Virus record (IMG/VR): IMGVR_UViG_3300046059_000057
Span: 1-51,430 of that record
Origin: a virus
Lineage: Duplodnaviria; Caudoviricetes
Strand: one strand, 5' to 3'
DNA: 51,430 nt
Shown in pieces: positions 2 through 49,420 of the stretch; the stretch's first letter is position 1; every line of letters begins with the position of its first letter. A program made the position numbers and the translations under genes. A model generated the notes under the pieces. It did no database searches, was not told the DNA's origin, and saw only the letters and a program-made list of their open reading frames with translations.

Positions 2-55
2 GAAGAACGACAAGAACTGTTCAACGAAGCGGAAGACCGAGGACTCAAGCTATGA
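2..55 (+). CDS. Partial CDS (C-terminus, EERQELFNEAEDRGLKL*)
   Basis: Open acidic frame from the window edge; TGA overlaps the ATG at 52 (ATGA coupling). Confidence 0.5.
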   Translation, partial: EERQELFNEAEDRGLKL

Positions 56-438
56 GTTACGAAAATTCGATACTTAGTAGGCTTCCACCGTCGGTTCAGG
101 AATACGCTGTTTCCCACGATGAAATCGGTGTTAATGAAATGCCGACGGAGTCGATTAACTGGGGCTTGCACGGCGAAGGGGACGGTGTAGCCTACCATAT
201 CCACGAATTCTCCGATAAAGATGGTATTGAACACACGGTTTCTTTCTACGATGAAGGTGACCGGTCATTCGGTTACATTGACGTTCAATCGTTTGAATGT
301 CAAAACGTCGTAAAAACGCCGTTTAATAACAGAAAAGTACGGAACCCATGTCTTCAATTTCGTCTCTTGGAACCATCGACTATTGTAACCGTTGGCGTTA
401 GTACCGACGGTTTACCGGTGTTCATAATATCCGGTTAA
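52..438 (+). CDS. Hypothetical protein
   Basis: 128-aa acidic ORF ending just before hammerhead 1. Confidence 0.7.
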   Translation: MSYENSILSRLPPSVQEYAVSHDEIGVNEMPTESINWGLHGEGDGVAYHIHEFSDKDGIEHTVSFYDEGDRSFGYIDVQSFECQNVVKTPFNNRKVRNPCLQFRLLEPSTIVTVGVSTDGLPVFIISG

Positions 439-454
439 ATCCGGACTACCTCTC

Positions 455-537
455 GGTATTGCGCCATACCTCCCCCTCGGCGGTTATCCGGGGGCTAAGG
501 CGCCTGATGAGTCCGATTAGGGTCCGGACGAAATACT
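455..537 (+). ncRNA. Type III hammerhead ribozyme HH1
   Basis: Stem III GGTA/TACT; triplet AUU (cut after 460); stem I GCGCC/GGCGC; core CTGATGA 504-510; stem II GTCCG/CGGAC; GAAA 530-533. Confidence 0.92.
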
Positions 538-552
538 AAGGTGTAATGCCAC

Positions 553-1008
553 ATGAAAGCGCTATATGCTGACGTTAAACACGTCACAGACGCGATCGAG
601 AAGTTGAACGGGGCCGTAGACTTAAGCGGTGAAGACGGTAGAATCACCGTTTATCCATCGGGGCCAGTAATGCGGGGTATAACCCTCACGGAGGCGAGGA
701 AACGTAACCTCATTAAAACGTTGGACCAGTCCGTTTGCTCGGTGAAAACCGATGGTGTCCGATGGACGATGGTGTTTCACCAAAAGATAACCGACGGTAC
801 ATTCGAGTTACGACCGGTTGAATCCGGTGAACAGGCGACGAGGATTGAGGAAATCGCTCCCATGTTGAAACCGGTGGTTCAGTCGATCGAAGACGAGTTT
901 AACGTAATTTCGTGGGATTTCTGCGAAGTTTCCGCCGCGAGCATCGGTAGCAACGGGCACTTCGTGGACTTCGAATTTCGGTACGTTATTACTTCAACGG
1001 AGCTATGA
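553..1008 (+). CDS. Hypothetical protein
   Basis: 151-aa ORF starting 16 nt after HH1. Confidence 0.75.
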   Translation: MKALYADVKHVTDAIEKLNGAVDLSGEDGRITVYPSGPVMRGITLTEARKRNLIKTLDQSVCSVKTDGVRWTMVFHQKITDGTFELRPVESGEQATRIEEIAPMLKPVVQSIEDEFNVISWDFCEVSAASIGSNGHFVDFEFRYVITSTEL

Positions 1009-1160
1009 ACAACGTTACTCACAACTTTCGGTTAATCGATGGCAGGTACGTATGTCAAGCGGAAGAATGTAGCTACGATACGTTGAACCGATGGACGGCG
1101 GTAGAACATTTCGCCGAAGAAACCACCGGTCTCAAGGAACCGGTGGAAGTCGTAGAATAA
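1005..1160 (+). CDS. Small Cys/His protein (MNNVTHNFRLIDGRYVCQAEEC..., 51 aa)
   Basis: Manual translation; ATGA-coupled to the upstream ORF; stop just before HH2. Confidence 0.6.
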   Translation: MNNVTHNFRLIDGRYVCQAEECSYDTLNRWTAVEHFAEETTGLKEPVEVVE

Positions 1161-1172
1161 CCCGAAATATTC

Positions 1173-1255
1173 CTTGTTTAGCGCCAGACCTGCCCTTCGG
1201 TTTACCGAAGGTAAGGCGCCTGATGAAACGGGGTAGGGTCCCGTTGAAAAACAAG
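1173..1255 (+). ncRNA. Type III hammerhead ribozyme HH2
   Basis: Stem III CTTGTT/AACAAG; triplet UUA (cut after 1180); stem I GCGCC/GGCGC; CTGATGA 1220-1226; stem II AACGGG/CCCGTT; GAAA 1246-1249. Confidence 0.93.
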
Positions 1256-1256
1256 T

Positions 1257-1412
1257 ATGTTCCGAGAACACGACGGTAGATACCTTCGGTGTACGGGCTG
1301 CGGCGGTCTCGTGGCACGTCCCGAAGAGGCAAAGTCATACGACGAAACACCGAAAACTCATGAGTGCGTGGATTTCGATGAAACAGGCGGTGCGCCAACG
1401 AATTTAATGTAA
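1257..1412 (+). CDS. Small CxxC protein (MFREHDGRYLRCTGCGG..., 51 aa)
   Basis: Manual translation; ATG 2 nt after HH2; stop abuts the next ORF. Confidence 0.65.
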   Translation: MFREHDGRYLRCTGCGGLVARPEEAKSYDETPKTHECVDFDETGGAPTNLM

Positions 1413-1413
1413 G

Positions 1414-2277
1414 ATGTTACGGTACATCCTGAAATACGGTCGGTCGGTGTATAAATGGCTCTTCCGTCGGGAAACGGCGGGGGGTACGGAAGACGAAAGT
1501 AACAACGAGGAACCGACGACGGAATCACCGGAGGAAACAACGGATGAGCCGTCTAACAGTTCAGCCGTTGAAACTCCTGAACCGACGGCGGAACCACCGG
1601 AGGACGAAGAAACCGAAGAACCAACGGTTAACCGCTCTTCGGAGGAGTCTGTAAACGTTCCTTGGCCGCCGTTTGTGGGTGGTGACGTGTGCCCGTGGCC
1701 GGAGCCTCCCGAGGAACCGAAAAACGTCATCGAGATACGGTTATACTGGCGCTCAAAGTCCACGGAGACCGCTTGTCATCAAGCGGTTAAATACGTCGAA
1801 TACTGCCTTCTCGACGCGTTTTCCGATCAGGGATATGACGTTGATGTTTCCGTTCATTCAGAGCCTATACCGGTGGGAGTCGACTTTTCATCGTGGTACT
1901 GGACGCTTGATGATATGGCTAAGGATGCGAATATCGCTTTTCATCCATACGGTAGTGTCTACGGTGCCGCCGGTGGATACGGCGGTTGGATGGACCCATC
2001 GTTCTTCGAGGGATGGGGCCGTGACCCGGGGGACCGTATCAAGAACGTCGGCGGTGATGGGGATTTCAACGGTCCAACCGCCGGTATTGTAACTCTATTA
2101 CATGAAATCGGTCATTGCCTCGGTTTATCGCATCTTGACCGGGTCGGGAACGAAGTTGAAGCGTACGGTAATGACTATACAACACCGATGAACGCGGGTT
2201 ACTCAAATACAACGAGAACCCGGTACATCTACGAGTATCACCCGTCGATTAAAAACCGGAAGCCTAAGGTACAATGA
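1414..2277 (+). CDS. Metzincin-type zinc metalloprotease with Glu/Pro/Thr-rich N-terminal linker
   Basis: HEIGHCLGLSH (HExxHxxGxxH) followed by a Met-turn-like TPMN. Confidence 0.75.
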   Translation: MLRYILKYGRSVYKWLFRRETAGGTEDESNNEEPTTESPEETTDEPSNSSAVETPEPTAEPPEDEETEEPTVNRSSEESVNVPWPPFVGGDVCPWPEPPEEPKNVIEIRLYWRSKSTETACHQAVKYVEYCLLDAFSDQGYDVDVSVHSEPIPVGVDFSSWYWTLDDMAKDANIAFHPYGSVYGAAGGYGGWMDPSFFEGWGRDPGDRIKNVGGDGDFNGPTAGIVTLLHEIGHCLGLSHLDRVGNEVEAYGNDYTTPMNAGYSNTTRTRYIYEYHPSIKNRKPKVQ

Positions 2278-2423
2278 TGTCGAAATGTCCGACTTGTGGT
2301 GACACGAACGCCGTACAATATGACGTAGACACGTACGAATGTCGTAGCTGCCGTACGCCCTTAAGAACCGACTGGTTAACGAACGACTGGACGTTACATG
2401 ACGATTATGAAACGTCAATGTGA
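2274..2423 (+). CDS. Zinc-finger microprotein (CPTC...CRSC, 49 aa)
   Basis: Manual translation; two CxxC pairs; ATGA coupling. Confidence 0.65.
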   Translation: MMSKCPTCGDTNAVQYDVDTYECRSCRTPLRTDWLTNDWTLHDDYETSM

Positions 2424-2523
2424 GGGATATTGTAACGGAATGGTAAAACTATCGGAGATTTATACGTTAAGCACCGGTGAACGCGTTTGCCCGAAATGTT
2501 ATCGTGAAGCGGTGAATCGTTGA
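2407..2523 (+). CDS. Zinc-finger microprotein (CEGYC...CPKC, 38 aa)
   Basis: Manual translation; four Cys; ends before a T-tract and HH3. Confidence 0.55.
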   Translation: MKRQCEGYCNGMVKLSEIYTLSTGERVCPKCYREAVNR

Positions 2524-2546
2524 ATCAATACCTTTTTTCCGTCGTT

Positions 2547-2624
2547 GTATCGCACCATACCTGCCCTCCGGTTTACCGGAGGCTAAGGTGCCTGACGAAA
2601 CGGGGTAGGGTCCCGTAGAAATAC
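2547..2624 (+). ncRNA. Type III hammerhead ribozyme HH3
   Basis: Stem III GTA/TAC; triplet AUC (cut after 2551); stem I GCACC/GGTGC; core CTGACGA 2592-2598; stem II ACGGG/CCCGT with a basal A-A mismatch; GAAA 2618-2621. Confidence 0.88.
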
Positions 2625-2628
2625 CACC

Positions 2629-2802
2629 ATGAAATCCGAAACACGGACGTTTGAACTGGAAAAGGTAACGAAGAACACGTTCCGGTACGAAGAAGCCACC
2701 GATGGCGTTCCACCGGCGTTTGGCAAGATTTACGTTCAGAAGTGGTTAATCGACGACGAACCGCCGGATGAGCTGTCAGTAACGGTTGAGACGAAGGAAT
2801 AA
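2629..2802 (+). CDS. Small protein (MKSETRTFELEKVTKNTFRYEE..., 57 aa)
   Basis: Manual translation; sole ORF between HH3 and HH4. Confidence 0.75.
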   Translation: MKSETRTFELEKVTKNTFRYEEATDGVPPAFGKIYVQKWLIDDEPPDELSVTVETKE

Positions 2803-2810
2803 CGGTCTAA

Positions 2811-2891
2811 CCTCCGTTATTGCGGTATACCTGATTTATAAACGTAAAACCGCCTGATGAGTCCGGGTAGGGTCCGGACGAAATACCGAGG
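2811..2891 (+). ncRNA. Type III hammerhead ribozyme HH4
   Basis: Triplet AUU (cut after 2821); stem I GCGGT/ACCGC; CTGATGA 2854-2860; stem II GTCCGG/CCGGAC; GAAA 2880-2883; stem III interrupted (TA/TA plus CCTC/GAGG). Confidence 0.88.
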
Positions 2892-2901
2892 TAATACCCA
2901 C

Positions 2902-3447
2902 ATGAATCCAACAGTAACCGTAATCGACGAAGGCGTTAGAACGGAGTATGAATTAATTCAAGCGATTAACGAAGGTGTTAGTATACCGACGGTTAAGTCG
3001 CTTCTTGACGTTCAAACAGCGCTCGACGAGGAAATGCTGGTTTCATCCGTTGACCGGAATAGTCATGTCGCCGAGAGAGCGGTGGAAGAAAACGTGTTCG
3101 CCGGTCAAATAATTTTACCGGGTTGGTTCGTTAACAATGACGCTGAACTGTCGGATAAATACGGCGAGATGCATCCCGGAGCCCGACTGACCATCGAAGG
3201 CCTCGTTGAGGATTATTCAGAGCCATCGTGGCGTGTAGTCGCCAGTAGAGACGTTGAACTACCGGGCCTTATCTTTGAGTACGAATGGACTTTCCTCCCG
3301 AAATCCGTTGTTACACTCATCCGCTTAGACGGTATCGGGGATATGGTAACGGCGGATAGAGTAAGTGAAGCGATCAACCGGTACCGACGTAATAAAACCG
3401 ATGAGTGGGCGGATATAACGTGGCAGGAGATGCTCGAAGCTTTATGA
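2902..3447 (+). CDS. Hypothetical protein
   Basis: Start moved from 2857 (an ATG inside the hammerhead core) to 2902, downstream of a GAGGT SD. Confidence 0.75.
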   Translation: MNPTVTVIDEGVRTEYELIQAINEGVSIPTVKSLLDVQTALDEEMLVSSVDRNSHVAERAVEENVFAGQIILPGWFVNNDAELSDKYGEMHPGARLTIEGLVEDYSEPSWRVVASRDVELPGLIFEYEWTFLPKSVVTLIRLDGIGDMVTADRVSEAINRYRRNKTDEWADITWQEMLEAL

Positions 3448-3587
3448 CGACGGAAACCCGGAGGTATGAATGCGGGAATTGTGATGGAACGTTAACCCGG
3501 GAAACCGTTGGTGAGCATTTCACGTGCGAGGATTGTGGCATCGTTGTAGCACCGGAATACGCCGAACAAGGTAGGAGGATACGATGA
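3444..3587 (+). CDS. Zinc-ribbon microprotein (CGNC...CEDC)
   Basis: TFIIB-like zinc-ribbon Cys spacing; ATGA coupling. Confidence 0.65.
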   Translation: MTTETRRYECGNCDGTLTRETVGEHFTCEDCGIVVAPEYAEQGRRIR

Positions 3588-3609
3588 TTAGTACGGTGGA
3601 GCATAACAC

Positions 3610-3708
3610 ATGAGCGACTTAATAACGGATTGTCCGGAGTGCGAACGTAAGAATAATCGGTTCGTTAATCCGGTTCGTTGTTATTACTGTGGCACGAAAT
3701 TCCGATGA
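3610..3708 (+). CDS. Zinc-finger microprotein (CPEC...CYYC, 32 aa)
   Basis: Manual translation; two CxxC pairs; overlaps the next ATG. Confidence 0.55.
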   Translation: MSDLITDCPECERKNNRFVNPVRCYYCGTKFR

Positions 3709-4010
3709 CTGCTCAACGAAAATTGGGTGACTATTCCGATAGTACCGAACTTGAAACTACGGAAGACCGTGGTATTCGGAGAACCGCTATTGCTTTACGT
3801 GAAGCACCGGATAACGCTGAACCTAATAATCCGTTATCTTGTCCGTGGTGCCTCGCGTCACCCGACGGTTTCAAAGTCACAACGAACGACGACGTAATAG
3901 GTAAATACCCGAAGCCGGATGAGCGGCTTGTATCGTGTGGGAACTGTAACGCCTGTATCCCGACGGAGGCAGACTGGTACCTCCGGGGACGTAAAATATG
4001 TCTGAGTTGA
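3705..4010 (+). CDS. Zinc-finger protein (CPWC...CGNC)
   Basis: Two CxxC pairs; start at ATG 3705. Confidence 0.7.
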   Translation: MTAQRKLGDYSDSTELETTEDRGIRRTAIALREAPDNAEPNNPLSCPWCLASPDGFKVTTNDDVIGKYPKPDERLVSCGNCNACIPTEADWYLRGRKICLS

Positions 4011-4396
4011 CAATCACGACGGTTAATTCGGTTGAACGTCGGTTATTACCGATTTTGGATGATTACAAGTCCTTTAAAGCCGAATATCGTACGGCGGAAG
4101 CGGTAATACAACCGGTTGACGGTGAACTACGTGTGCCATACGTTGCACGACGGAATCCCGGTGATTTCAAGGCTCTGATGGACGTTTTAACCGACGAATT
4201 GAATCACACGAGGTTTCGGTTTATCGGTACAAGCGTCCCTCCTTCGGAGGTATTCACGAAAATCGGCCCTTCCGACGCGAGGACTATCCATGAGGCGGTT
4301 AATGGATTTACCGAAGAAACGCTACGAGAGTACGTTAACGATCGAGGGGACATAGAACCGGTGGAAACGCTGGTTGGCGATTGGAAGCCCGATTGA
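3998..4396 (+). CDS. Hypothetical protein
   Basis: 132-aa ORF ending a few nt before HH5. Confidence 0.75.
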   Translation: MSELTITTVNSVERRLLPILDDYKSFKAEYRTAEAVIQPVDGELRVPYVARRNPGDFKALMDVLTDELNHTRFRFIGTSVPPSEVFTKIGPSDARTIHEAVNGFTEETLREYVNDRGDIEPVETLVGDWKPD

Positions 4397-4400
4397 GCGT

Positions 4401-4480
4401 TTTGTAGCACCATACCTGCCCTCCGGTTTACCGGAGGCTAAGGTGCCTGACGAACCGTAGTAGGGTTACGGTGAAACAAG
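4401..4480 (+). ncRNA. Type III hammerhead ribozyme HH5
   Basis: Stem III TTG/CAA; triplet GUA (cut after 4406); stem I GCACC/GGTGC; CTGACGA 4447-4453; stem II ACCGTA/TACGGT; GAAA 4473-4476. Confidence 0.92.
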
Positions 4481-4494
4481 GAGACGATAAACCG

Positions 4495-4740
4495 ATGGAG
4501 AATAAGGTAACTGGTTCGATAATCGGAGAATTGATACTCGGTGAGTTGTACGATTGGCACGTCGGTATCTGTCGTGTCAAGTACGACGGCGGTAACACCG
4601 CTGATATCGTGGTTTACGACGAGAATGACCACGTACTCAAACGGTTGGATATCGAGGAATACACCGATGACGCGATACATCTGGATGCTATTGCCGATAC
4701 CGTTAATGCAACGGTTCAACGGGAAATGGAACGGTTATAG
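4495..4740 (+). CDS. Hypothetical protein
   Basis: ATG after an AGGAG SD; the ORF-track start at 4471 lies inside HH5. Confidence 0.7.
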   Translation: MENKVTGSIIGELILGELYDWHVGICRVKYDGGNTADIVVYDENDHVLKRLDIEEYTDDAIHLDAIADTVNATVQREMERL

Positions 4741-4741
4741 C

Positions 4742-4975
4742 ATGGAGTGGAAACGGAAATCCGAGGTCTCCGAGATGTATTGTGCGGTTCATAACGTTGA
4801 TTGTTCGTTGCACCGGCATCCCGAAGACCCGTGGGTGTTAGCACTCGATCCCACGAAGATACCGGATGCGTGGATATGCCCAAAGAGCGTACAAGAAATC
4901 GCAGTATTCGGGGAGCAAGCGGATTTACGTGTCGAGAGGAATCGTGATACGAATAACCCGAATCTACCGCCATGA
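4742..4975 (+). CDS. Hypothetical Cys/His protein
   Basis: MEWKRKSEVSEMYCAVH...; starts 1 nt after the previous stop. Confidence 0.6.
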   Translation: MEWKRKSEVSEMYCAVHNVDCSLHRHPEDPWVLALDPTKIPDAWICPKSVQEIAVFGEQADLRVERNRDTNNPNLPP

Positions 4976-5103
4976 TAACGGTTACAACGATTTATAAGGT
5001 CAAGACACCGGATGGCACCGTTTATCAGACAACCGATGCTGAAACTGCGGGTACGGAATCCCGTAGAGGCGGTTACGTTACAGCGGTGGTAACCGATGCC
5101 TGA
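4972..5103 (+). CDS. Small hypothetical protein (43 aa)
   Basis: Manual translation MITVTTIYKVKTPDG...; ATGA coupling. Confidence 0.55.
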   Translation: MITVTTIYKVKTPDGTVYQTTDAETAGTESRRGGYVTAVVTDA

Positions 5104-5221
5104 ATCAATCCTACGGGAAAACGACGAATGTCCGGCGTGTAAGAAACCCGGGGAAACCGGTGAAGCGTGGTTACTATGCACTACCTTTCAATGCAGAGTG
5201 GTAAACTACGAAGAACGGTGA
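5096..5221 (+). CDS. Zinc-finger microprotein (CPAC...CTTFQC, 41 aa)
   Basis: Manual translation; four Cys; overlaps the upstream stop. Confidence 0.6.
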   Translation: MPESILRENDECPACKKPGETGEAWLLCTTFQCRVVNYEER

Positions 5222-5226
5222 GCGGC

Positions 5227-5394
5227 GGATTCTACGTGCGTATGTCGGTAAGCCTCAAGTCCCCCGAAATAAGCGAACGTTCTTACGTTCGTAATAACCG
5301 CTCGACGTACGGTTACTTGAACGTAGACCTTGGGGGTTTGACCGGCTTCGGGGGTAGGGGTTATCGACGCCAGAATCCAATCCCGGACGTTCAA
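5227..5394 (+). ncRNA. Putative multi-stem structured RNA of unknown class
   Basis: Nested pairings GGATTCT/AGAATCC, GTCGGTAA/TTATCGAC, CCCCCGAA/TTCGGGGG plus internal hairpins. Confidence 0.5.
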
Positions 5395-5468
5395 TTAAAC
5401 GCCGTTCAAGGGTACAGTAAACCGAATAACCGTTGGTATTCAATCCAACGAACCACCGTACGTTAAAC

Positions 5469-6491
5469 ATGAAACAGTACGAATTTCATTCGACCGAGGG
5501 GTACGATAAGTTTACAAACGCCGGAGAAACGCCATTGGCGGAGGCCAAACGCCATTCCGTGTACGCGGATAGGGCACACGCTTTTAACGAAGAACCGAAG
5601 GGCAGAAAACACTACGCTGAACTTGAAACGAAATCCGCTGTGTTCAACGATAGAGACGACGAATTGGCGTATGTGAGTTCCGATATTTACGACTTGATTC
5701 AGCATCACGAGGTATTTGACGCCGTTAAAACCGCTGTCGATGCGACTGTGGGCGAAATCGATTTCGGTATGATACGCGATTACGGGGCCAGAGTTGACGG
5801 GGTCGTTGTCTTCGGGAATCAGTCGGAGGCTAACATCGATATGCGTGAGTTACTCGGTGATTCGTATATACCTCCGGAAGGTCGACCGGATACTGACCCA
5901 ACAGCAGAGGATTCAAGATGGCGTGATAGCGTTGGCTTGGGTATGAGATTCCGGAATTCGTTTGACGGGGACACGAAAATCGGCGGTAGTACGATGGGAT
6001 ACCGGTACATCTGCCAGAATTGGCTTGTGTGGGATGAAGCGGAAATCGGGTCCGTTGAACGGTCGCATACGCGTTCTCGTGACGCCGAAGATGGCATTGA
6101 ACCCGATTTCTTCGTCGATATTATAACTGACGTGTTTGAGGTTCGTGAACAGGTAGAATCGCTGTTAACCGAGGCAGCGGAGACAGAGGTTCCATTAACG
6201 TGGGTACCCGGTGTTTTAGAGCAAAACAATTTCGGAGAGAACTACCAGAAACGAATAACCGGTCGGGTACTCGCTCAAGACTCCGGAAGTCGGTCGGAGG
6301 ACGAAACGTCAATGTGGAACGTTTATAATGCTACAACGGCGGAGCTTGATCGGAATACCGCTGAATCCTCCGGTAAAACGTATGACTATTATCAGTCGTA
6401 TGCTTGGGGTATGCTTGATTCGGAGATCGGTGAAATCGAAGAACCGACGGAGGATATGAGTGAGTTACGGGATTTCGCTATAGCTCCGTAA
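5469..6491 (+). CDS. DUF932/DUF945-like mobile-element protein
   Basis: RNSFDG...GYRYICQN pattern typical of this family; ATG at 5469. Confidence 0.65.
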   Translation: MKQYEFHSTEGYDKFTNAGETPLAEAKRHSVYADRAHAFNEEPKGRKHYAELETKSAVFNDRDDELAYVSSDIYDLIQHHEVFDAVKTAVDATVGEIDFGMIRDYGARVDGVVVFGNQSEANIDMRELLGDSYIPPEGRPDTDPTAEDSRWRDSVGLGMRFRNSFDGDTKIGGSTMGYRYICQNWLVWDEAEIGSVERSHTRSRDAEDGIEPDFFVDIITDVFEVREQVESLLTEAAETEVPLTWVPGVLEQNNFGENYQKRITGRVLAQDSGSRSEDETSMWNVYNATTAELDRNTAESSGKTYDYYQSYAWGMLDSEIGEIEEPTEDMSELRDFAIAP

Positions 6492-6511
6492 AAACGGAAC
6501 CCCGTTATTTG

Positions 6512-6568
6512 CCGTCGTTCCATACCTTAAGGAACCTGATGAACCGGGGTAGGGTCCCGGTGAAACGG
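6512..6568 (+). ncRNA. Type III hammerhead ribozyme HH6 (minimal, 57 nt)
   Basis: Stem III CCG/CGG; triplet GUC (cut after 6516); stem I GTTCC/GGAAC; CTGATGA 6536-6542; stem II ACCGGG/CCCGGT; GAAA 6562-6565. Confidence 0.95.
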
Positions 6569-6575
6569 AGGTACT

Positions 6576-6809
6576 ATGGAAATACAACGGTTATACCGCG
6601 ACAACGAGCTCGATGAAACGACGGTTAGAATCGTAGGCCACCGCTCTAAGGAAATGTTAGACGGAATACACGCCATAACCGATGAATCATCGGTTGAACG
6701 TAATGTGTATGCTTCGTCGGAAACCACGAAGATAGCCTATAAGAAACCGGTTGAAGCGAACGTTGAGAAAACCGAAGAAGGAAACGTTCTCCGGATACAT
6801 GACCGGTGA
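6576..6809 (+). CDS. Hypothetical protein
   Basis: ATG after a GGAGGT SD that overlaps the HH6 3' end. Confidence 0.75.
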   Translation: MEIQRLYRDNELDETTVRIVGHRSKEMLDGIHAITDESSVERNVYASSETTKIAYKKPVEANVEKTEEGNVLRIHDR

Positions 6810-7200
6810 TAGATTCGACGCTTGGATGAATCAAGCGGAGGAGAATACCGATAAGTGGGGCGTTCAACCGCCGGCTGACGTCGTTCTCGCTATCATGGAG
6901 GAACTCGCGGAGGTTACCGAAGAAATACTTTATACCTCCGAAATACCGTCGGGCCAACGGGATATGGATGAACCGGTGTTAATGAGTTACATCGTTGAGA
7001 TAGCGGTTCTTGGAACGGAAATCCGTGAAGAGCTCGAAAACCAATATGAAGACGAAAACGGTCGGCCTATCCCGGAACATGAACGGCCAACCGTACTCGG
7101 AAGAATAAACGACCCTAAAGCAGTTGACCGTGAGCTGGATGACCTCGGTCCATTAGTCGTTCAGCTTGCGGAAAGTATTGACGAATACTCGAAGGAATAA
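6799..7200 (+). CDS. MazG-like all-alpha NTP pyrophosphatase-fold protein (tentative)
   Basis: WG.Q...MEELAEV..E and ELDDL acidic motifs. Confidence 0.45.
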   Translation: MTGDRFDAWMNQAEENTDKWGVQPPADVVLAIMEELAEVTEEILYTSEIPSGQRDMDEPVLMSYIVEIAVLGTEIREELENQYEDENGRPIPEHERPTVLGRINDPKAVDRELDDLGPLVVQLAESIDEYSKE

Positions 7201-7203
7201 CGT

Positions 7204-7350
7204 ATGGTACAACGGAACGCGAAAAAGACGGCTACAGGCAACTTCGTCGTCGAATGCCCGTCATGCGGGCAAACGATACAATTGACGGGTAGCCCGTGTG
7301 ATTTCTGCGGAGAACCGTACAGTATAACCGTCGAGTTCCCGGGGGTATGA
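7204..7350 (+). CDS. Zinc-finger microprotein (CPSC...CDFC, 48 aa)
   Basis: Manual translation; CPxCG motif. Confidence 0.65.
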   Translation: MVQRNAKKTATGNFVVECPSCGQTIQLTGSPCDFCGEPYSITVEFPGV

Positions 7351-7413
7351 CCCCTCCGCCGTTAGCCGACGGTTGAACCGCTCTACGAGCGAGGGTACGA
7401 AATACCGATGGTG

Positions 7414-7498
7414 TCTGTCTTCCGTCGCCCAGCCAACGGCTAACCGTCGTTAAGGGCCTGATGAGTTCGGTGTGGCGACCGGTGAAACGAAAGACGGG
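7414..7498 (+). ncRNA. Type III hammerhead ribozyme HH7 (divergent)
   Basis: Long stem III TCTGTCTTCCG/CGAAAGACGGG; triplet GUC (cut after 7426); stem I GCCC/GGGC; CTGATGA 7458-7464; GAAA 7484-7487. Confidence 0.85.
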
Positions 7499-7556
7499 TT
7501 CAAGGGCGCCAGAACTGGCGCCGGGTGAGCGTTTACCGCCGCGGTACTTAAAGATT

Positions 7557-7718
7557 ATGACAAGGTACGAACCAAAAACCGCCGTATTGAAATGCGGTGG
7601 TAGAGACAGGGGTAACGTTGAAATCCCGGATGACGGGATTATAGTGGAGAGGCGAGCCGTCGGAGGTTTAGCCGCTGAAAAGGTCGTTATTACGTGGTTA
7701 CACCCAATTGATACATGA
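7557..7718 (+). CDS. Small hypothetical protein
   Basis: MTRYEPKTAVLKC...; the ORF-track start at 7461 is inside HH7. Confidence 0.55.
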   Translation: MTRYEPKTAVLKCGGRDRGNVEIPDDGIIVERRAVGGLAAEKVVITWLHPIDT

Positions 7719-8191
7719 ACGTCTTTTGGCTTGACTCCGATTACGATACGGCTGCCCGATGTATGATTGACTCCCACGTCGGTTCTAAGATGATTGTTGA
7801 AGCCGCTCAAATCATCGGTGAAGCGCTTCAAGCCAACGGTTTCAAGCAACCGTTCCTAAGGTCCGGGTACCCGTCTCACCCATTAGTAAAGTGGGCGGCG
7901 GAGTCGTCGGAGAACGTTCGTACCGTTGGACTAATGGCTTCAGCGATGTATCGTGAGAAGAAGCATAGATACGGCGGGGGCCACAAGTCATACGAAGAAG
8001 GAATTGAACCGATCGATTTCCGTAGTATTGAGTACGGTGGTGCGTACACGGAGCCGCCGAAATGCATGGACGATAAATACGTTCATTCCGACTTAGTACC
8101 GTCGTACCGTCACTATTACGCTTGCGAGAAAACGGTAGGAGCAAGCTGGACGGACCGATCGGAACCTGATTGGATAGAATCATGGCGCTAA
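7715..8191 (+). CDS. Pyrimidine-dimer DNA glycosylase / endonuclease V-like protein
   Basis: MNVFWLD..AA...D.HV.KMIVEAAQ...HP..KWA pattern of the DenV/Pyr_excise-related family. Confidence 0.7.
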   Translation: MNVFWLDSDYDTAARCMIDSHVGSKMIVEAAQIIGEALQANGFKQPFLRSGYPSHPLVKWAAESSENVRTVGLMASAMYREKKHRYGGGHKSYEEGIEPIDFRSIEYGGAYTEPPKCMDDKYVHSDLVPSYRHYYACEKTVGASWTDRSEPDWIESWR

Positions 8192-8379
8192 CCGACGATC
8201 AGAAGCGTACGTTAAGCGAAATACCGTCGGTTGGATTTCACATTAACACCGGTGGACCGTGTGAATGCGGTGGTGAGAACTATCGTACAACGAAAACTCA
8301 CGGGTTTAGTGATTCGATAGTCTACCGGCACAAGTGCCAAACCTGCGGGAATGAGTTTTCAACGTGGATAGAGGGCTAA
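8182..8379 (+). CDS. Zinc-ribbon protein (CECG...CQTCG)
   Basis: Cys pairs; C-terminal HKCQTCGNEF. Confidence 0.65.
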   Translation: MALTDDQKRTLSEIPSVGFHINTGGPCECGGENYRTTKTHGFSDSIVYRHKCQTCGNEFSTWIEG

Positions 8380-8561
8380 GCCTCGGAATGCCGAATTCGT
8401 ATTTACGCATAACTGAAATCGTCTCGACCTCCGGTTTCGCCAGAGCGACGGTGTATCGCACTTACAGTCGTTGGGCGTTCTCCCCATTGGCAACGGGTCA
8501 CGGATGTAAGCTTCAGGAGACCGGTTAGTCGGTACCGGTTCCCGTTATACCGTCTGATTTT

Positions 8562-8625
8562 TCGTTCCGGCATACCTCGGTAAAAAGCCGGCTGATGAAG
8601 CGGGTTTAGGGTCCCGTTGAAACGA
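8562..8625 (+). ncRNA. Type III hammerhead ribozyme HH8
   Basis: Stem III TCG/CGA; triplet GUU (cut after 8566); stem I CCGGC/GCCGG; CTGATGA 8592-8598; stem II AGCGGG/CCCGTT; GAAA 8619-8622. Confidence 0.92.
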
Positions 8626-8629
8626 CACT

Positions 8630-8965
8630 ATGAACCGCTCAACACCGACGCCCAAGATAATCATAGAAACCGCCGCGAAGAATCCAGATGCGTCGTTTAA
8701 AGAGATAGCCAACATAATCAACGGGGAAACCAACGGTCCGATAGTTCAACCGTCGTACGTTAAGAGGGTCTTAAACGGGGAAATCGTAGAGTTAACGATT
8801 TCTTATACCATCGACCTAACTGATGATGACCTCGACGGTTTACCGGATGTGGATACGGTTCATCGGTATACTGAAGATACGGAACACCGTACCGAAAACC
8901 GCTCAACCGTCGGGGGTACAGGGAGTCAAGGTGCTCCCTCCGGTGATTCGTCGGAGGAAACTTAG
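8630..8965 (+). CDS. Putative HTH DNA-binding protein
   Basis: NPDASFKEIA...SYVKRVL HTH-like pattern; ATG 5 nt after HH8. Confidence 0.55.
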   Translation: MNRSTPTPKIIIETAAKNPDASFKEIANIINGETNGPIVQPSYVKRVLNGEIVELTISYTIDLTDDDLDGLPDVDTVHRYTEDTEHRTENRSTVGGTGSQGAPSGDSSEET

Positions 8966-8966
8966 T

Positions 8967-9272
8967 ATGGACGAGTTCTTCGACCTCGTTGATACCGAAG
9001 TTACCGACGATTATCTTCGTCAGGTGCATGGTCACGAGGCGGAGCAGGATATCGATCTTCCAGAGGTTAAGAAACCGCTTCTTGAAGTTCTCATCGACGG
9101 GCAGATTAGCGCTTTCAACGACTGTGTTTCCGGGGGCAGAACCGCGAAAGCAGCCCTGCATTACCGGTTGATTGTACGGTTACTGGAATCCGACGGTGAA
9201 CTACGTGAAGCTTTCGAAAAACATCAAAGTCAGCATCCGTTGGCTTCAGTATTCGGGGAAACGGAGTTCTGA
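8967..9272 (+). CDS. Hypothetical protein
   Basis: MDEFFDLVD...; starts 1 nt after the previous stop. Confidence 0.7.
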   Translation: MDEFFDLVDTEVTDDYLRQVHGHEAEQDIDLPEVKKPLLEVLIDGQISAFNDCVSGGRTAKAALHYRLIVRLLESDGELREAFEKHQSQHPLASVFGETEF

Positions 9273-9643: not shown

Positions 9644-9949
9644 ATGGGCGGAGTTGATATGGATAATCGGTTGGACGTAGAAGTACCGTTAGATTTCTTT
9701 AACCCGGAGAAATCCGAAGGTACTAAGAATCCGAAGGCACGGGAACATATGGCGAAGGTAGCACAGTTTTCCGCCGGCGGTTTAACGGCTTTAGAGTATG
9801 CAGAGAAAGCGTTAGTTGATGAAAACACGGCGTACCGCGTTCTACAAGAAGCTGTAACCGAAGGGAAAATGAAAACGGAAACCCGGGAAACCGAAGGCAG
9901 AGGCGAACACCCAACGGTTTACACCGTTGATAGACCCGTTGGTACGTGA
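9644..9949 (+). CDS. Putative winged-helix DNA-binding protein
   Basis: LTALEYAE...NTAYRVLQE...GRGEHPTVY wHTH-like layout. Confidence 0.55.
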   Translation: MGGVDMDNRLDVEVPLDFFNPEKSEGTKNPKAREHMAKVAQFSAGGLTALEYAEKALVDENTAYRVLQEAVTEGKMKTETRETEGRGEHPTVYTVDRPVGT

Positions 9950-9974
9950 CAAGGTTCGATTCCTTGAGGGTCCC
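9932..9974 (+). ncRNA. tRNA-like mini-element A (acceptor stem plus T-arm)
   Basis: GACCC/GGGTC stem stacked on CAAGG-TTCGATT-CCTTG; no anticodon arm. Confidence 0.5.
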
Positions 9975-10074
9975 TTGGGGCCGGAGAACCGCCCTCATGT
10001 GGGGCGGCACCCGCGTCAGGCCGGGTTAAATACTCCGTGCCCCAGTCACACGCTCCGTGCCTCCGGTTTTCCGG

Positions 10075-10157
10075 GGGCACGTAGTGGGTATAAAGGCCTC
10101 CGACGGTACATCGTCTGTACCATCGGTGGGCCGAGGGTTCAAATCCCTCTGTACCTC
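10075..10157 (+). ncRNA. tRNA-like element B
   Basis: GGGCACG/TGTACCT acceptor-like stem; T-arm GAGGG-TTCAAAT-CCCTC; a long irregular stem replaces the anticodon arm. Confidence 0.5.
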
Positions 10158-10179
10158 CGGAAAACCGGAGGGCAGGCGT

Positions 10180-10231
10180 GCTCCCGAAGTATTCGGACTT
10201 GATACCGGTGGTTCGATTCCGCCCGGGGGCG
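10180..10231 (+). ncRNA. tRNA-like mini-element C
   Basis: 7-bp acceptor GCTCCCG/CGGGGGC; T-arm GGTGG-TTCGATT-CCGCC; 20-nt linker. Confidence 0.6.
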
Positions 10232-10244
10232 TGAGGTACTACCG

Positions 10245-45976: not shown

Positions 45977-48900
45977 ATGAAAGACCCAACGGAAGTTGAC
46001 GTCGAGTTGCCGGAGTTCCTCGATATATCGTGGGGTTGGCAGGATAGCGAGGCTAAGTTGAAGTTACTCACGGAGTCTGACGGTGTTGTGTACCGTGATT
46101 TACCGTTCCGACCGTACTGTTATATGCGTAGGAGCGAAGTGACTGAGGAAACGTTGAAATCTATCCGTGAAATCGATGAAACGGCGGAGATCGTTGAGAC
46201 TTCGGACTACTATCAGGGCGACTTGTATCGTGTCCACGTATCTTATCCGACGTTGATTCGTGAGCTACGGGAAACCGTAGATATCGAGACCCTACAGTCG
46301 GATGTGCCGTACAGTCGGAGGGTACTCATAGACCTCGATGAATCGGTGTCCGAGCCCTCAAGAGTGCTATCCTTCGATTTGGAGGTAAAAGCCGATGAAG
46401 GGTTCCCTGACGTCGAAGAAGCCGAACAACCGATTTTAACGATCGCTGCCGTTGGCTCCGACGGTCAAGAGTATACGTTCGGAAGTGATAACGAACGGGA
46501 AACTATCAACCGGTTTCTCGACGTTGCAAAGGAGTACCGGGCGATTATGGGCTGGAACTCGATACGGTTCGATTTTCCGTATCTCGAGAACCGCTGCCGC
46601 CGGTTAGACGCCGAGGGTTCAGAGGTGGAATTGAACTTTGACCCGTTCAGCTTCGTTCATGTGGACGCTTTCCCGACGTACCGCCGGATTCTGATGAAAG
46701 GCGGTCAATCGTATGCGCTTGAAGACGTTGGTGTGTACGAGTTCGGTGATGAATTCGGTGGGTATCCAGAAGTCGATTATTCGGCTCTCGAAGAGCTGTT
46801 CCACGAAGACCGTGAACGGCTTATGGAATACAATCTGTCGGATGCTCGGGTCGTGAAGCGGTTGAACGATCGGTATCAATTCAAGAAGATAACGTTCGGT
46901 ATACTCGCTAAACGGGGTCATTGTCGGCCTTCTGATATATTTTTCGTCCACGGTTTCGAAGGCGGTTTCCACGGGTATCGTGAGGTTGATAAAGCGAGTA
47001 ACACGCTTATTGAAGGCATCGTTATGTCGTTGTCTAACGGTGACCACGGGCCGGAAGTCGTTTGGCCTAATCAGATACGTGACCATGAGGTAGAATTCGA
47101 GGGTGCAAAGGTTCTCGACCCGAAAGACGGCCTTCATTATAACGCGATTACCCTCGATTACGCGTCGATGTATCCGTCCATTATTGATGCTTTGAACATC
47201 GGTCCGGAGACGTATCGAGACGGTAATAAAGGCGAAATCAAAGGACCAACGGGTTCATTCGTTAAAGAACCGAAAAGCCGGTTCTCCGAGGCTTATCACG
47301 TGATGAAAGATGAACGGGATACGTATACAAACCTCAAGAAGTCGCTTCCCCGTAGTCATGACGAATATACGATCGTTGAGTCTTTAGACGCGGGGCTTAA
47401 AACGTACGTTAATTGCTTCGTACCGGAGACAACCGTTGTTACTCCAGATGGAATAAAGAAAATCGGAAATATAGAGGTCGGAGACGACGTTTATTCGATA
47501 AATCCGGAAACATATGAAACCGAAGTAAAACCGGTGGTAGATACGTATGAACGAAAGTATGAAGGTCCGATGTATCACATTAACAACGCTAACTACGAAC
47601 AAAAAGTAACACCGAACCATCGGTTCCTCGTTGATGAATACGACGGGGAGCTATCTGCACCCTCGTCGGATTTCAACGAAATTAAGGACATGGACGAACG
47701 GTATGTAATCCCTCGTAATAAACCCTTAACCGGTGATACACCGCCGGAGGTAGATTTAGCGGAGCTCGCGGATACCGGTGAAGTGCTATTGGAGTATACC
47801 GTTGATTATAGAACTGTAAACGCGGAATTCGATATTGACGGTGAACGTATGGCTTGGCACGAAACCGACGACCATACAGTTCGGTTGATAAGGATTTCGT
47901 TAGACGAATATTCGTCAAATAGAGTGGAAATAAATCGGCTTATTGAGTCCGAATACGTCGAAAGAACGTTTTATCGATATGCCGAAAAGCACACGAAACA
48001 ACCGCTGAAGATCGACTCCATCGAATTTCTGAAGGTCGTCGGTTGGTACGTTGCAGAAGGCGGTGAAAAGAATATCGACGGTTCGGCGGTAATATACCAA
48101 CAGGACCGGAATGATACGCTTAAAGAAGACCTCGATAACGCCGGTTTAGAGTATAAAGCGTACGATAAAGGTGTTCAAGTCCCCGGAGGTATAGGCGCTG
48201 TACTGTCGAAATACTTCGGGGATAAGTCAGAGAATAAACGGTTACCCGAGTTCTTATACGACTGGGACGGCGGTGACTTATATTGGTTATTCCACCGGTT
48301 GTGTCTCGGAGACGGTCGGATGACAGAACGCGGGAATCCGGCGAGTTATGTGACTAAAAGTACGGAACTACGAAAAGACGTTACGAGGCTCGCTGTTCAT
48401 GTAGGTACAATACCGAAGGATACGGCCCGAGATGTACGGTTCTTGAACGAACACAAGTCACGGTGTGATACGATAGACATGGAAAGAGACGTCGAAATTG
48501 AACAGTACGATGGAAAGGTACAATGCGTTACAGCGGAGGATAACCACACTATACTTGCGGGTTTGAACGGAAGGTGGGGTTGGACGGGACAAACGTTCTA
48601 CGGAGTCATAGGCAGCGGATATTCGAGGTTTTATTCTAAACCGGTGGCTGAAGCCATTACACTCATGGGTCAGAAACTCGTGGATAAACTCGCTGAACTT
48701 GCGGAGGAACGGGACTTGAAGGTTATCTACGGGGATACGGATTCCGTGATAATAGGACTCGGCGAAAACCCGGAGGAAGACCCCGTGAAACATGGCAAAC
48801 GCTTAGCCGACGAATTCACCGCTGAAATTAAGAATTGGGTGGAAGATGAGTTTAACGGGTTCCCAGACCGTATAGACGTCGGTTTAGACGAGGTCTATGA

Positions 48901-49420
48901 AACGTTCTATATCACGGATGTAAAGAAGCGCTATGCGGGAATATGCGTATGGGACGGTGCATCATGCTATGAGTACGATAGAACCGGATTTAAGTCAGTC
49001 CGCGGGGATACATCCGAAGCCGTGGCTAACTTCGTGGATGATTTACTCCGTGCTATACTCCTTGAAAACGACGTTTGGGACGTTGTTCAAAACTACCGCG
49101 AGAGGCTCTTTAACGGTGAATTAGACGATTCCTTGGTGAATGCGGTGAGCCTCCGGAAACCCGTGGAGGAATACGATAGCTGTCCGCCTCACGTTAGAGT
49201 AGCGCAGAACTGCGATGATAACATCCGTGTCGGCGACCAAGTACCGTACTTGAAGTACGGTTCAGACCCGAAAGACGTCGTTTATGCACCTGAAGGCCCG
49301 CCGGAAGAGTACCTTACAAATGCGACATACCGGTGGATGTGGAAAAAGCACTTCAAATCGTGTATGGACAACATGAACGTTTCTAAGCACGAGAAAACGG
49401 TACTGAGTGATTACGCATGA
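45977..49420 (+). CDS. polB: Family B DNA polymerase with intein
   Basis: SFDLEV, DYASMYPS, K...N/TFYG and YGDTDS motifs. Confidence 0.95.
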   Translation: MKDPTEVDVELPEFLDISWGWQDSEAKLKLLTESDGVVYRDLPFRPYCYMRRSEVTEETLKSIREIDETAEIVETSDYYQGDLYRVHVSYPTLIRELRETVDIETLQSDVPYSRRVLIDLDESVSEPSRVLSFDLEVKADEGFPDVEEAEQPILTIAAVGSDGQEYTFGSDNERETINRFLDVAKEYRAIMGWNSIRFDFPYLENRCRRLDAEGSEVELNFDPFSFVHVDAFPTYRRILMKGGQSYALEDVGVYEFGDEFGGYPEVDYSALEELFHEDRERLMEYNLSDARVVKRLNDRYQFKKITFGILAKRGHCRPSDIFFVHGFEGGFHGYREVDKASNTLIEGIVMSLSNGDHGPEVVWPNQIRDHEVEFEGAKVLDPKDGLHYNAITLDYASMYPSIIDALNIGPETYRDGNKGEIKGPTGSFVKEPKSRFSEAYHVMKDERDTYTNLKKSLPRSHDEYTIVESLDAGLKTYVNCFVPETTVVTPDGIKKIGNIEVGDDVYSINPETYETEVKPVVDTYERKYEGPMYHINNANYEQKVTPNHRFLVDEYDGELSAPSSDFNEIKDMDERYVIPRNKPLTGDTPPEVDLAELADTGEVLLEYTVDYRTVNAEFDIDGERMAWHETDDHTVRLIRISLDEYSSNRVEINRLIESEYVERTFYRYAEKHTKQPLKIDSIEFLKVVGWYVAEGGEKNIDGSAVIYQQDRNDTLKEDLDNAGLEYKAYDKGVQVPGGIGAVLSKYFGDKSENKRLPEFLYDWDGGDLYWLFHRLCLGDGRMTERGNPASYVTKSTELRKDVTRLAVHVGTIPKDTARDVRFLNEHKSRCDTIDMERDVEIEQYDGKVQCVTAEDNHTILAGLNGRWGWTGQTFYGVIGSGYSRFYSKPVAEAITLMGQKLVDKLAELAEERDLKVIYGDTDSVIIGLGENPEEDPVKHGKRLADEFTAEIKNWVEDEFNGFPDRIDVGLDEVYETFYITDVKKRYAGICVWDGASCYEYDRTGFKSVRGDTSEAVANFVDDLLRAILLENDVWDVVQNYRERLFNGELDDSLVNAVSLRKPVEEYDSCPPHVRVAQNCDDNIRVGDQVPYLKYGSDPKDVVYAPEGPPEEYLTNATYRWMWKKHFKSCMDNMNVSKHEKTVLSDYA
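47414..48592 (+). mobile_element. Intein with LAGLIDADG-type homing endonuclease in PolB (393 aa)
   Basis: Begins CFVPET after KTYVN; block B TPNHRF; GWYVAEG and LCLGDG; ends WTGQ before T-FYG. Confidence 0.9.

Follow-up and report, generated by a model that had tools for sequence, protein, structure and literature searches.

Eight hammerhead ribozymes between the genes of a probable haloarchaeal virus are likely to divide a polycistronic transcript into linear mRNAs

The tailed-virus record IMGVR_UViG_3300046059_000057 (51,430 nt, analysed as a whole and referred to here as the window; completeness roughly 90%) carries eight type III hammerhead ribozymes on its + strand, with cuts placed by the parsed structures after positions 460, 1180, 2551, 2821, 4406, 6516, 7426 and 8566. 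A preliminary description had reported hammerheads in this region, and these are real: its positions 461, 2552, 2821 and 8566 agree with the parsed cleavage sites. The eight copies fall within 8.2 kb, are all intergenic and bracket the genes of the virus in a + strand block of small, tightly packed genes (52–9000) that has PolB–XPF replication genes upstream of it. We consider it likely that this ribozyme array cuts a polycistronic transcript into linear mRNAs, and we infer co-transcription, cleavage in vivo, the linearity of the products and any effects on stability and translation from the sequence. The record encodes a portal, a terminase, a capsid and a tape measure protein, its proteome is acidic and its capsid resembles that of haloarchaeal Kirjokansivirales; the host domain is probably archaeal, as for a haloarchaeal-type virus. 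A scan of genome contigs gave ten matches, all in bacterial MAGs and none in a haloarchaeal provirus, and such model scores as there were proved weak (26.3 bits once and 19.6 bits twice).

The pattern CTGANGA-N12-30-GAAA matched ten times in the window against 1.78 expected, and none of 100 shuffles reached ten; eight of the ten matches form one family, every member of which is on the + strand, between 504 and 8622. A strict descriptor (U-H at the cut, at least 4 bp in stem I, at least 4 bp in stem II and at least 3 bp in stem III) recovered seven of the eight family members and found nothing in 200 shuffled windows, the seventh copy in the array (HH7) being missed because its stem II is bulged. 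A covariance model (R1) scored the eight window ribozymes at 39–85 bits, a match that holds by construction since its training set includes them, and the best further match reached 15.3 bits and lacked the catalytic box. Weak R1 matches at 43923, 50170, 40883, 38790 and 51053 were discarded because their catalytic boxes are missing. Rfam gave no match in the window at gathering score; in E-value mode RF00008 matched HH4 alone, at 18.5 bits against a gathering cut-off of 48.5, which is an operational criterion and does not define hammerheads. These sub-cut-off scores are probably explained by the long stem I inserts and the 6-bp stem II.

All eight window copies have the consensus core (CUGANGA, GAAA, an A15.1-U16.1 pair and a nucleotide other than G at cleavage position 17), and the A15.1-U16.1 pair is invariant both in the 11 aligned sequences (11/11) and in 22 further copies from metagenome contigs (22/22). 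Across the 11 sequences 89.8% of cells were paired: stem I was paired throughout (100%), with compensatory double changes in 5/5 pairs, stem II was 93.9% paired, with compensatory double changes in 6/6 pairs, and the inner pairs of stem III were likewise compensatory, stem III being open and stems I and II loop-closed. The covariation score was 0.62, against at most 0.16 with the partners slid. The 22 further copies, which were kept out of model building, showed 90.5% of cells paired, and their covariation reached 0.70 where slid controls did not exceed 0.11. Between loop I and loop II, 4–7 contiguous pairs are possible in 11/11 copies (with GCCA/UGGC as the partners in HH7 and ACCU/GGGU elsewhere); the aligned loop columns contain no double changes and loop shuffles per copy gave P=0.015–0.69, a weak significance for the pseudoknot that arises because the loops are G-rich and C/U-rich. 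Taken together, the aligned sequences show the RNA fold to be under strong purifying and compensatory selection, so that an RNA function would be the primary one.

The position of the ribozymes relative to the genes is regular. From stop codon to cut the gaps are 22, 20, 28, 19, 10, 25, 76 and 187 nt for HH1 to HH8, most of them too short to hold a separate promoter unless it overlapped coding sequence, and at 7/8 window ribozymes an ORF begins with an ATG 7–19 nt past the GAAA. With relatives counted in, an ATG lies within 40 nt in 23/26 parsed copies and a Shine-Dalgarno (SD)-like pentamer within 24 nt in 12/26, a set that, like the pair counts given below, omits unparsed weak copies in two related contigs (L161, oriented 5364–5432; L155, oriented 33–124). 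HH1 (451..543; 79.4 bits), a type III copy whose stem I is a 43-nt extended hairpin, is followed 19 nt past the GAAA by an ATG at 553, and HH2 (1171..1259; 84.8 bits), with a native stem III of 7 bp, by an ATG at 1257 after 7 nt. The same distance of 7 nt separates HH3 (2542..2631; 83.0 bits) from the ATG at 2629 and HH8 (8557..8632; 70.5 bits) from that at 8630. The core of HH3 reads CUGACGA, with C at position 7, the variable position of the box, and the first pair of its stem II is an A-A mismatch, so that cleavage may be slow. HH4 (2812..2893; 77.9 bits) is followed by HH5 (4397..4486; 79.9 bits), cut just 10 nt past the stop codon of the ORF at 3998–4396, by HH6 (6507..6575; 71.8 bits), in which stem I is a short 19-nt hairpin, and by HH7 (7417..7497; 39.2 bits), a divergent copy.

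On the reading that we prefer, the block from 52 to 9000 would be transcribed into one long polycistronic RNA, which the eight type III hammerheads would cleave during its synthesis, a putative pseudoknot between loops I and II lending them stability. Each product would be a linear mRNA with 1–6 ORFs, beginning with a folded ribozyme that buries its 5'-OH in stem I, carrying its first start codon 7–19 nt past the ribozyme, often with an SD box in or beside the stem III strand, and ending in a 2',3'-cyclic phosphate. The cassettes would thereby be uncoupled in stability and translation, as by a natural insulator. Precedents have been reported: tandem hammerheads from prophages cleave polycistronic RNAs of about 2 kb in vitro, and the hammerhead of the haloviruses HF1/HF2 lies 13 nt before a start codon, with a transcript 5' end within 3 nt of the cut (PMC3088659). 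T5–T6 tracts occur closely upstream of HH3 and HH8. As archaeal terminators, these tracts could make some cassettes separate transcripts.

The nearness of SD boxes to stem III also bears on an alternative in which the ribozymes are conditional switches, either because the cleavage rate answers intracellular salt or Mg, or because stem III masks the SD box until the cut is made; such an array would time or tune expression and not act constitutively. In the family consensus the stem III strand ...CCUCCGUUAU pairs with AUAACGGAGGU, which places the SD box inside the helix in several copies (in L161, in the related contig L169 and in the upstream strand of HH4), and the weakened stem II of HH3 would suit a tuned rate. 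A response to salt and Mg was suggested for halovirus hammerheads by Perreault 2011, where variants from salterns required 75 mM Mg or more in vitro (PMC3088659). The Mg-dependent saltern variants, however, have core insertions whereas the cores here are consensus, an SD-like box accompanies only 12/26 copies, and with native stem III lengths of 3 to 10 bp masking would be inconsistent. We regard a switch as unlikely.

Related metagenome contigs carry arrays of 2–5 copies, partly at matching gene boundaries. In L160 (about 70% nucleotide identity) ribozymes occupy the HH4 and HH6 boundaries, the HH6 orthologue coming after the same 340-aa gene, and HH4 has an orthologue at the same gene boundary in L169 as well. 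L160 has no HH7 orthologue, and it carries an additional ribozyme between the homologues of 2902–3447 and 3678–4010; L168 carries an additional cassette. The smallest ribozyme-bounded unit of the window, 270 nt between the HH3 and HH4 cuts (2552..2821, +), encodes a 57-aa protein of pI 4.6 (2629–2802), which is, in line with the preliminary description, the sole + strand ORF of at least 40 aa in the unit. The − strand of the unit holds two ORFs of 46–47 aa. The 57-aa ORF and the ribozymes on either side of it have counterparts in L169, the proteins sharing 65% amino-acid identity over 54 residues; L160 lacks the 57-aa cassette. Outside these arrays, the same subtype occurs as a lone copy in three other viral contigs, flanked by the large terminase gene on one side and a virion-type gene on the other, and no homologues of the cassette genes were found in them. 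Among 108 matches to a first, loose pattern in viral contigs, four passed the structural descriptor, three of them of the same subtype, and the remainder look like chance; a second viral-contig scan yielded 23 loci, with model scores only for three already known contigs. Among cultured viruses Hardycor1 and HATV-3 are the nearest by capsid, and neither contains a copy of the hammerhead (nor did Rfam at gathering score match in Hardycor1); single-protein seeds (340-aa DUF932-like, 158-aa Pyr_excise-like and XPF-like) retrieved no close relatives among viral contigs.

This shifting of boundaries while the array persists would be explained if the ribozyme repeats also had a role at the DNA level, as portable recombination joints that swap whole cassettes and regenerate a working ribozyme each time, a role compatible with RNA processing. 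Several observations are consistent with such exchange, beyond the gain and loss of cassettes and ribozymes among L160, L168, L169 and the window. HH3 and HH5 share every base of the first 48 nt past the cut, yet their stem II sequences differ, with compensation; the upstream strand of HH1 pairs better with the body of HH4 (9 bp, −12.0 kcal/mol) than with its own (5 bp); and a decayed remnant of HH1/HH4 type (7366..7414, +), which retains the stem I 3' strand and ACGAAATACCGA but no longer the CUGAUGA box or the greater part of stem II, adjoins HH7. Ordinary indels and ribozyme duplication would look the same, however, the comparison covers five related contigs that are mostly short, and the strong selection on the RNA fold argues for a primarily RNA-level function. 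Among the cassette genes no paralogues were found beyond one 16-residue match (E=8e-4). We consider a recombination role possible, though rather doubtful.

Hammerhead cleavage leaves a 5'-OH and a 2',3'-cyclic phosphate. The preliminary description raised the possibility of circular viral mRNAs. On this reading host RtcB, or the hammerhead acting in reverse as a ligase, would seal some doubly cut cassettes, and the coding circles so formed would resist exonucleases and be translated from SD sites within them. Chemically this is possible, but the idea is only partly supported: RtcB-compatible ends follow from established hammerhead chemistry, RtcB joins such ends, many first ORFs are preceded by SD-like boxes, and RtcB is present in Haloferax volcanii and nine other control genomes, although the virus record itself encodes none. 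Retrozyme monomers released by ribozymes are circularised efficiently in vitro by RtcB (30–80%, versus 1–3% by self-ligation; PMC7229834). The further claim that joining rebuilds a hybrid hammerhead did not hold for the 270-nt unit that had been singled out, and is predicted for one fragment in seven. Contiguous hybrid stem III pairs number 1, 1, 3, 3, 2, 7 and 8 for the seven fragments in order; the ribozymes at the two ends of a unit differ from each other, which is why most units fail to give a hybrid. In partition-function folds of whole fragments the hybrid helix formed only in 6517..7426 (+), where the HH6 body and the HH7 3' strand pair over 7 bp with probabilities of 0.84–0.95; the probability of such a helix was 0.00 in 2552–2821 and at most 0.07 in the other five fragments, among them 7427–8566, where the eight potential pairs are disfavoured in the ensemble (0.02).

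Hybrid pairing was also not above chance across the arrays. Over 14 consecutive pairs in five contigs, 11 reach at most 3 bp and three reach at least 5 bp, against 7.5% of 650 non-native pairings (P=0.079), and mean pairing gave P=0.15; when the order of the eight window ribozymes was permuted, hybrid compatibility had P=0.057, a signal lost with more arrays. Nor is compatibility conserved between orthologous small cassettes, with 3 bp in the window versus 7 bp in L169. That L169 hybrid stem III and the ends of 6517–7426, predicted to close, are observations that stand against purely linear products. The lone copies of the subtype are counted for linear processing, because one ribozyme cannot give a ribozyme-bounded circle. 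Perreault et al. 2011 had already considered spliced or circular products of prophage arrays, and neither kind was detected there (data not shown; PMC3088659). Archaeal circRNA surveys list rRNA, tRNA and IS RNAs, and in them protein-coding genes account for a single circle (PMC12558985). We regard circular viral mRNAs as quite unlikely, and give slightly less weight still to a coding circular RNA with a rebuilt hybrid hammerhead, made in vivo when host RtcB or the ribozyme itself seals at least one cassette; the best candidate is 6517–7426, for which the folds predict that the two ends come together as a full hybrid hammerhead.

Linear products invite comparison with engineered insulators. 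RiboJ-type insulators are engineered bacterial self-cleaving ribozymes placed directly upstream of a ribosome-binding site, where cleavage strips away the RNA that precedes them and the mRNA then begins with a folded structure; the window array, with its ribozymes likewise before start codons, is natural. It also lies in a probable archaeal virus, and in archaea mRNA 5'-end biology is unlike that of bacteria (leaderless versus leadered mRNAs, no cap, 5'-end-dependent decay). If its products are only linear, the array is a tidy and expected addition to a known phenomenon.

In retrozymes and viroid-like RNAs, as would be the case here, two hammerhead cuts free a unit whose 5'-OH and 2',3'-cyclic phosphate can be joined by a tRNA ligase or by RtcB; those units are, however, bounded by identical repeats, so that the circle regenerates a perfect ribozyme, and they are non-coding and replicated or retrotransposed (PMC7229834, PMC6765202). 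The window units are protein-coding. The preliminary description had likened end joining here to that of retrozymes, but the ribozymes that flank a window unit are not near-identical repeats, and most hybrids are unpaired. Fragment 6517–7426 gives a sharp prediction for or against circularisation. A coding circle, if real, would be the first circRNA of that kind encoded by a virus in archaea, and would give circular mRNAs engineered with ribozymes plus RtcB a natural parallel.

The closest published systems are viral. The HHphage hammerhead of HF1/HF2 (also mentioned in PMC7230728) resembles the window copies in lying in the early region of a haloarchaeal tailed virus, 13 nt upstream of a start codon, but it is a single copy with a 2-nt catalytic-core insertion and a high Mg need, in contrast to the consensus cores and the array found here (PMC3088659); HF1 and HF2 are myoviruses unrelated to the window virus. 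The prophage clusters of Perreault 2011 resemble the array: in both, a few kb of a tailed virus hold several hammerheads on the same strand, set around single genes or short gene blocks, and a role in polycistronic RNA processing is proposed, with circular or spliced products likewise considered; the prophage copies have a loop I–loop II pseudoknot, of the sort that may form here (PMC3088659). Clustered phage hammerheads and a halovirus hammerhead were already published in 2011, and the window array extends such clusters to a probable archaeal virus. The purpose of phage ribozyme clusters, open since 2011, was still called unresolved in a 2019 review (PMC6765202). The present lineage is a clean natural example, in which the distance to start codons is fixed and relatives carry orthologous arrays for comparison. 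The window array differs from the prophage clusters in its probably archaeal host, the tested examples described in PMC3088659 being bacterial, and in consisting of eight type III copies that belong to a single subtype, an array kept in a small saltern-type contig lineage.

The pattern CTGANGA-N12-30-GAAA matched ten times in the window against 1.78 expected (0 of 100 shuffles reached ten), and eight of these matches, all on the + strand, belong to a single family (HH1–HH8, numbered in order). Every copy follows the order of a type III hammerhead ribozyme: the short 3′ strand of stem III, U16.1, a non-G residue, the cut, the stem I hairpin, CUGAYGA, the stem II hairpin, GAAA and the 5′ strand of stem III. 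A strict descriptor recovered seven of the eight copies and none in 200 shuffled windows; the copy that it missed, HH7, has a bulged stem II. The cuts fall after 460, 1180, 2551, 2821, 4406, 6516, 7426 and 8566, and the positions given in the preliminary description (461, 2552, 2821 and 8566) held exactly. None of the eight was detected by Rfam at the gathering score, and in E-value mode HH4 alone was matched (18.5 bits), likely because stem I inserts reach 33 nt.

The eight window copies and three further members of the subtype, taken from other viral contigs, were aligned, with the hammerhead structure imposed. In this 11-copy alignment, 89.8% of cells were paired and the covariation score was 0.62, versus at most 0.16 in any slid control. 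Compensatory double changes were seen in all five stem I pairs and all six stem II pairs, while the two stem III pairs beside the invariant A15.1-U16.1 were 100% paired, again with double changes. A covariance model built from this alignment, run over the window at full sensitivity, found no further credible copy, the next matches scoring at most 15.3 bits and lacking the catalytic boxes. The same model recovered 22 copies in metagenome contigs, none of which had been used in building it; 90.5% of their cells were paired (score 0.70 versus at most 0.11 for slid controls), in an alignment whose fitting to the model somewhat favours pairing. Judged by these sequence patterns, the eight copies are almost certainly genuine ribozymes, predicted to cleave themselves.

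Individual copies showed further features. In each of the 11 copies, the G-G-G-U of the conserved loop II has a potential partner in a conserved A-U/G-A-C-C-U box that immediately follows the 5-bp stem I, with 4–7 contiguous pairs possible; a per-copy shuffling control was not significant. Both loop partners are changed in HH7 (GCCA/UGGC). This pairing agrees with the pseudoknot type described for hammerheads, which is reported in about 40% of them (PMC3088659). In HH3 the first stem II pair is an A-A mismatch, and this copy may therefore cleave more slowly. HH3 (2552–2599) and HH5 (4407–4454) are identical for 48 nt from the cut onward, a stretch that covers the whole stem I hairpin and the core box; their stem II sequences differ with compensation, a hint that copies have recombined or undergone gene conversion. 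Directly upstream of the divergent HH7, at 7366–7414, is a dead hammerhead of the HH1/HH4 type, which suggests ribozyme turnover at that boundary. The strand upstream of the HH1 cut (449–460) and the HH4 body (2880–2893) can form 9 contiguous bp (−12.0 kcal/mol), which outranks every other stem III combination in the 8 × 8 matrix, native ones included; either a duplication left this match behind or it underlies a splice-like join, 460→2822.

In a block of small ORFs that are tightly packed or overlap, the ribozymes fill nearly all the larger intergenic gaps. The cut lies 22, 20, 28, 19, 10 and 25 nt after the preceding stop codon for HH1–HH6, and 76 and 187 nt after it for HH7 and HH8. Downstream, the next ATG follows GAAA after 19, 7, 7, 18, 18, 10 and 7 nt in seven of the eight copies, HH7 being the exception. 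When relatives were included, 23 of 26 parsed copies had an ATG within 40 nt, and 12 of 26 had a Shine–Dalgarno-like pentamer within 24 nt. The seven bounded fragments measure 720, 1371, 270, 1585, 2110, 910 and 1140 nt and hold from one to about six ORFs each; as first described, the 270-nt unit (2552–2821) carries a single ORF (57 aa, 2629–2802), and it is the sole monocistronic fragment of the seven. T6 and T5 tracts (2531–2540 and 8557–8562) stand directly upstream of HH3 and HH8 and could be archaeal oligo-T terminators, in which case both read-through and termination may occur at these boundaries. Within the block, a 287-aa ORF (1414–2277) has a HEIGHxxGLSH motif, read from the DNA, that is zinc-metalloprotease-like; Pfam and PHROG searches gave no match for it.

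Hammerhead products end in a 5′-OH and a 2′,3′-cyclic phosphate, and RtcB joins such ends. In vitro, RtcB closed 30–80% of ribozyme-released retrozyme monomers, versus 1–3% by self-ligation, in the experiments described in PMC7229834. The virus record encodes no RtcB, which was present in a Haloferax control genome. It had been proposed that joining the ends of each fragment would rebuild a hybrid hammerhead, which requires the ribozyme body at the 5′ end to base-pair with the stem III strand that the following ribozyme leaves at the 3′ end. Counted from the core outward, the hybrid stem III had 1, 1, 3, 3, 2, 7 and 8 contiguous pairs in the seven fragments, compared with 5, 7, 4, 3, 6, 4, 3 and 4 native pairs in HH1–HH8. 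Partition-function folds of whole fragments bore the proposal out for 6517–7426, where the hybrid helix formed with probabilities of 0.84–0.95 over 7 pairs, and went against it for the other six (0.00 in the 270-nt unit, 0.02 in 7427–8566 and at most 0.07 in the remaining four). With relatives included, the 14 consecutive pairs gave 1, 1, 1, 1, 2, 7, 2, 1, 1, 3, 3, 2, 7 and 8 contiguous hybrid pairs; at least 5 bp were thus found in 3 of 14, versus 7.5% of 650 non-native pairings among the 26 copies (P = 0.079; P = 0.15 for the mean). The compatible cases have the family consensus stem III in common (…CCGUUA-U-H with GAAA-UAACGGAGGU), and common descent accounts for their compatibility, which differs between orthologous small cassettes (3 bp in the window versus 7 bp in the related contig L169). 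Circles reported in the archaeal surveys described in PMC12558985, which include two haloarchaea, were rRNA and tRNA intermediates, IS-associated RNAs and one circle in a protein-coding gene. Taken together, the modelled folds leave a slim chance that particular fragments, above all 6517–7426, circularise, but the overall architecture of the array does not favour it. The most likely reading, which we hold with reasonable confidence, is that HH1–HH8 cut up a long transcript, yielding linear mRNAs that each start with a folded ribozyme.

True relatives, with 50–52% GC, were recovered in one metagenome scan. Contig L160 is syntenic with window 2.3–7.3 kb at ~70% nucleotide identity and has five ribozyme copies, two of them at gene boundaries matching HH4 and HH6 and one additional copy between homologues of 2902–3447 and 3678–4010; it lacks an HH7 orthologue and the 57-aa cassette. 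Contig L169, with two copies, carries homologues of ORFs 2274–2423 and 2398–2523 followed by a homologue of the 57-aa ORF (65% identity over 54 residues) with one ribozyme on either side, which marks the small cassette as a conserved, real unit. L168 has a homologue of ORF 8170–8379, two copies and an extra cassette. In L161, PolB and XPF genes run on into an array with three copies, which indicates that the window's + strand block continues across the record ends. The array is thus a feature of the lineage, with boundaries that shift between relatives. Three observations suggest a complementary role at the DNA level, in which repeated ribozymes would serve as joints for cassette gain and loss: cassettes are present or absent between relatives, the copies show mosaic similarity (as in HH3 and HH5), and the HH4 body is a better partner for the HH1 upstream strand than the HH1 body is.

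Lone copies of the same subtype occur in three low-GC (37–47%) viral contigs, at 3805–3870 in L141 and, on the − strand, at 3991–4059 in L132 and 603–671 in L138. Each is flanked on one side by the large terminase gene and on the other by a conserved acidic virion-type gene encoding a very acidic 142-aa protein (phrog_17792, with a weak Gp80-like match).

The record, 51,430 bases in its entirety, is classed as linear and ~90% complete. Genes for a portal, a MuF-like protein, large and small terminase subunits, an HK97-type capsid protein, a tape measure and a tail fibre occupy 11.8–38.7 kb on the − strand, and those for PrimPol, thymidylate kinase, ThyX, UDG, a Cas4-like nuclease, an intein-bearing family B DNA polymerase and an XPF/ERCC4-HhH nuclease occupy 39–50.5 kb on the + strand. 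Capsid protein identity is 40% with Halorubrum phage Hardycor1 and 31% with HATV-3 (both Kirjokansivirales), the proteome is strongly acidic (median pI 4.64 for 19 small ORFs; pI 4.05–4.97 for eleven large proteins) and CxxC small proteins are common, all of which fits a haloarchaeal tailed virus. The genome collection searched yielded no provirus. The polymerase (45977–49420) has a Hint/intein domain at residues ~480–570, and L161 aligns on either side without ~1.18 kb there (window about 47412–48593), so that the predicted intein is present in this virus and missing from its relative. The ~960 nt that separate the XPF gene from the start of the ribozyme block's genes (50470–51430) contain no ORF of at least 90 aa and have AT-rich tracts (35% GC near 51053–51112); this is likely a promoter or origin region. 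At 9940–10240, three tRNA T-arm-like motifs (GGTTCGATTCC, GGGTTCAAATCCC and again GGTTCGATTCC) lie within 300 nt, where ARAGORN found no tRNA and Rfam gave weak, chance-level matches to a tmRNA 3′ end and sucA; they could act as tRNA-like signals for processing, or represent an attP-type partial tRNA of the kind described in HF1-group viruses.

No hammerhead of the window subtype was found in Hardycor1 or HATV-3, and full-text literature searches on hammerheads of haloviruses and archaeal viruses turned up no paper on halovirus hammerheads beyond Perreault et al. 2011. A 2019 review still called the purpose of such ribozymes unresolved (PMC6765202). The kind of system is already known, and the value of the array is as a well-defined test case. 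In prophages, as described by Perreault et al. 2011 (PMC3088659), closely spaced hammerheads flank genes and cleave ~2-kb polycistronic transcripts in vitro; its authors considered spliced or circular products of such arrays and reported that they could detect neither. The paper also notes one hammerhead with a consensus core in saltern metagenomes, which may belong to the window subtype. In the haloviruses HF1 and HF2, it describes a hammerhead variant that precedes a start codon by 13 nt, and a transcript 5′ end was mapped at most 3 nt from the cut.
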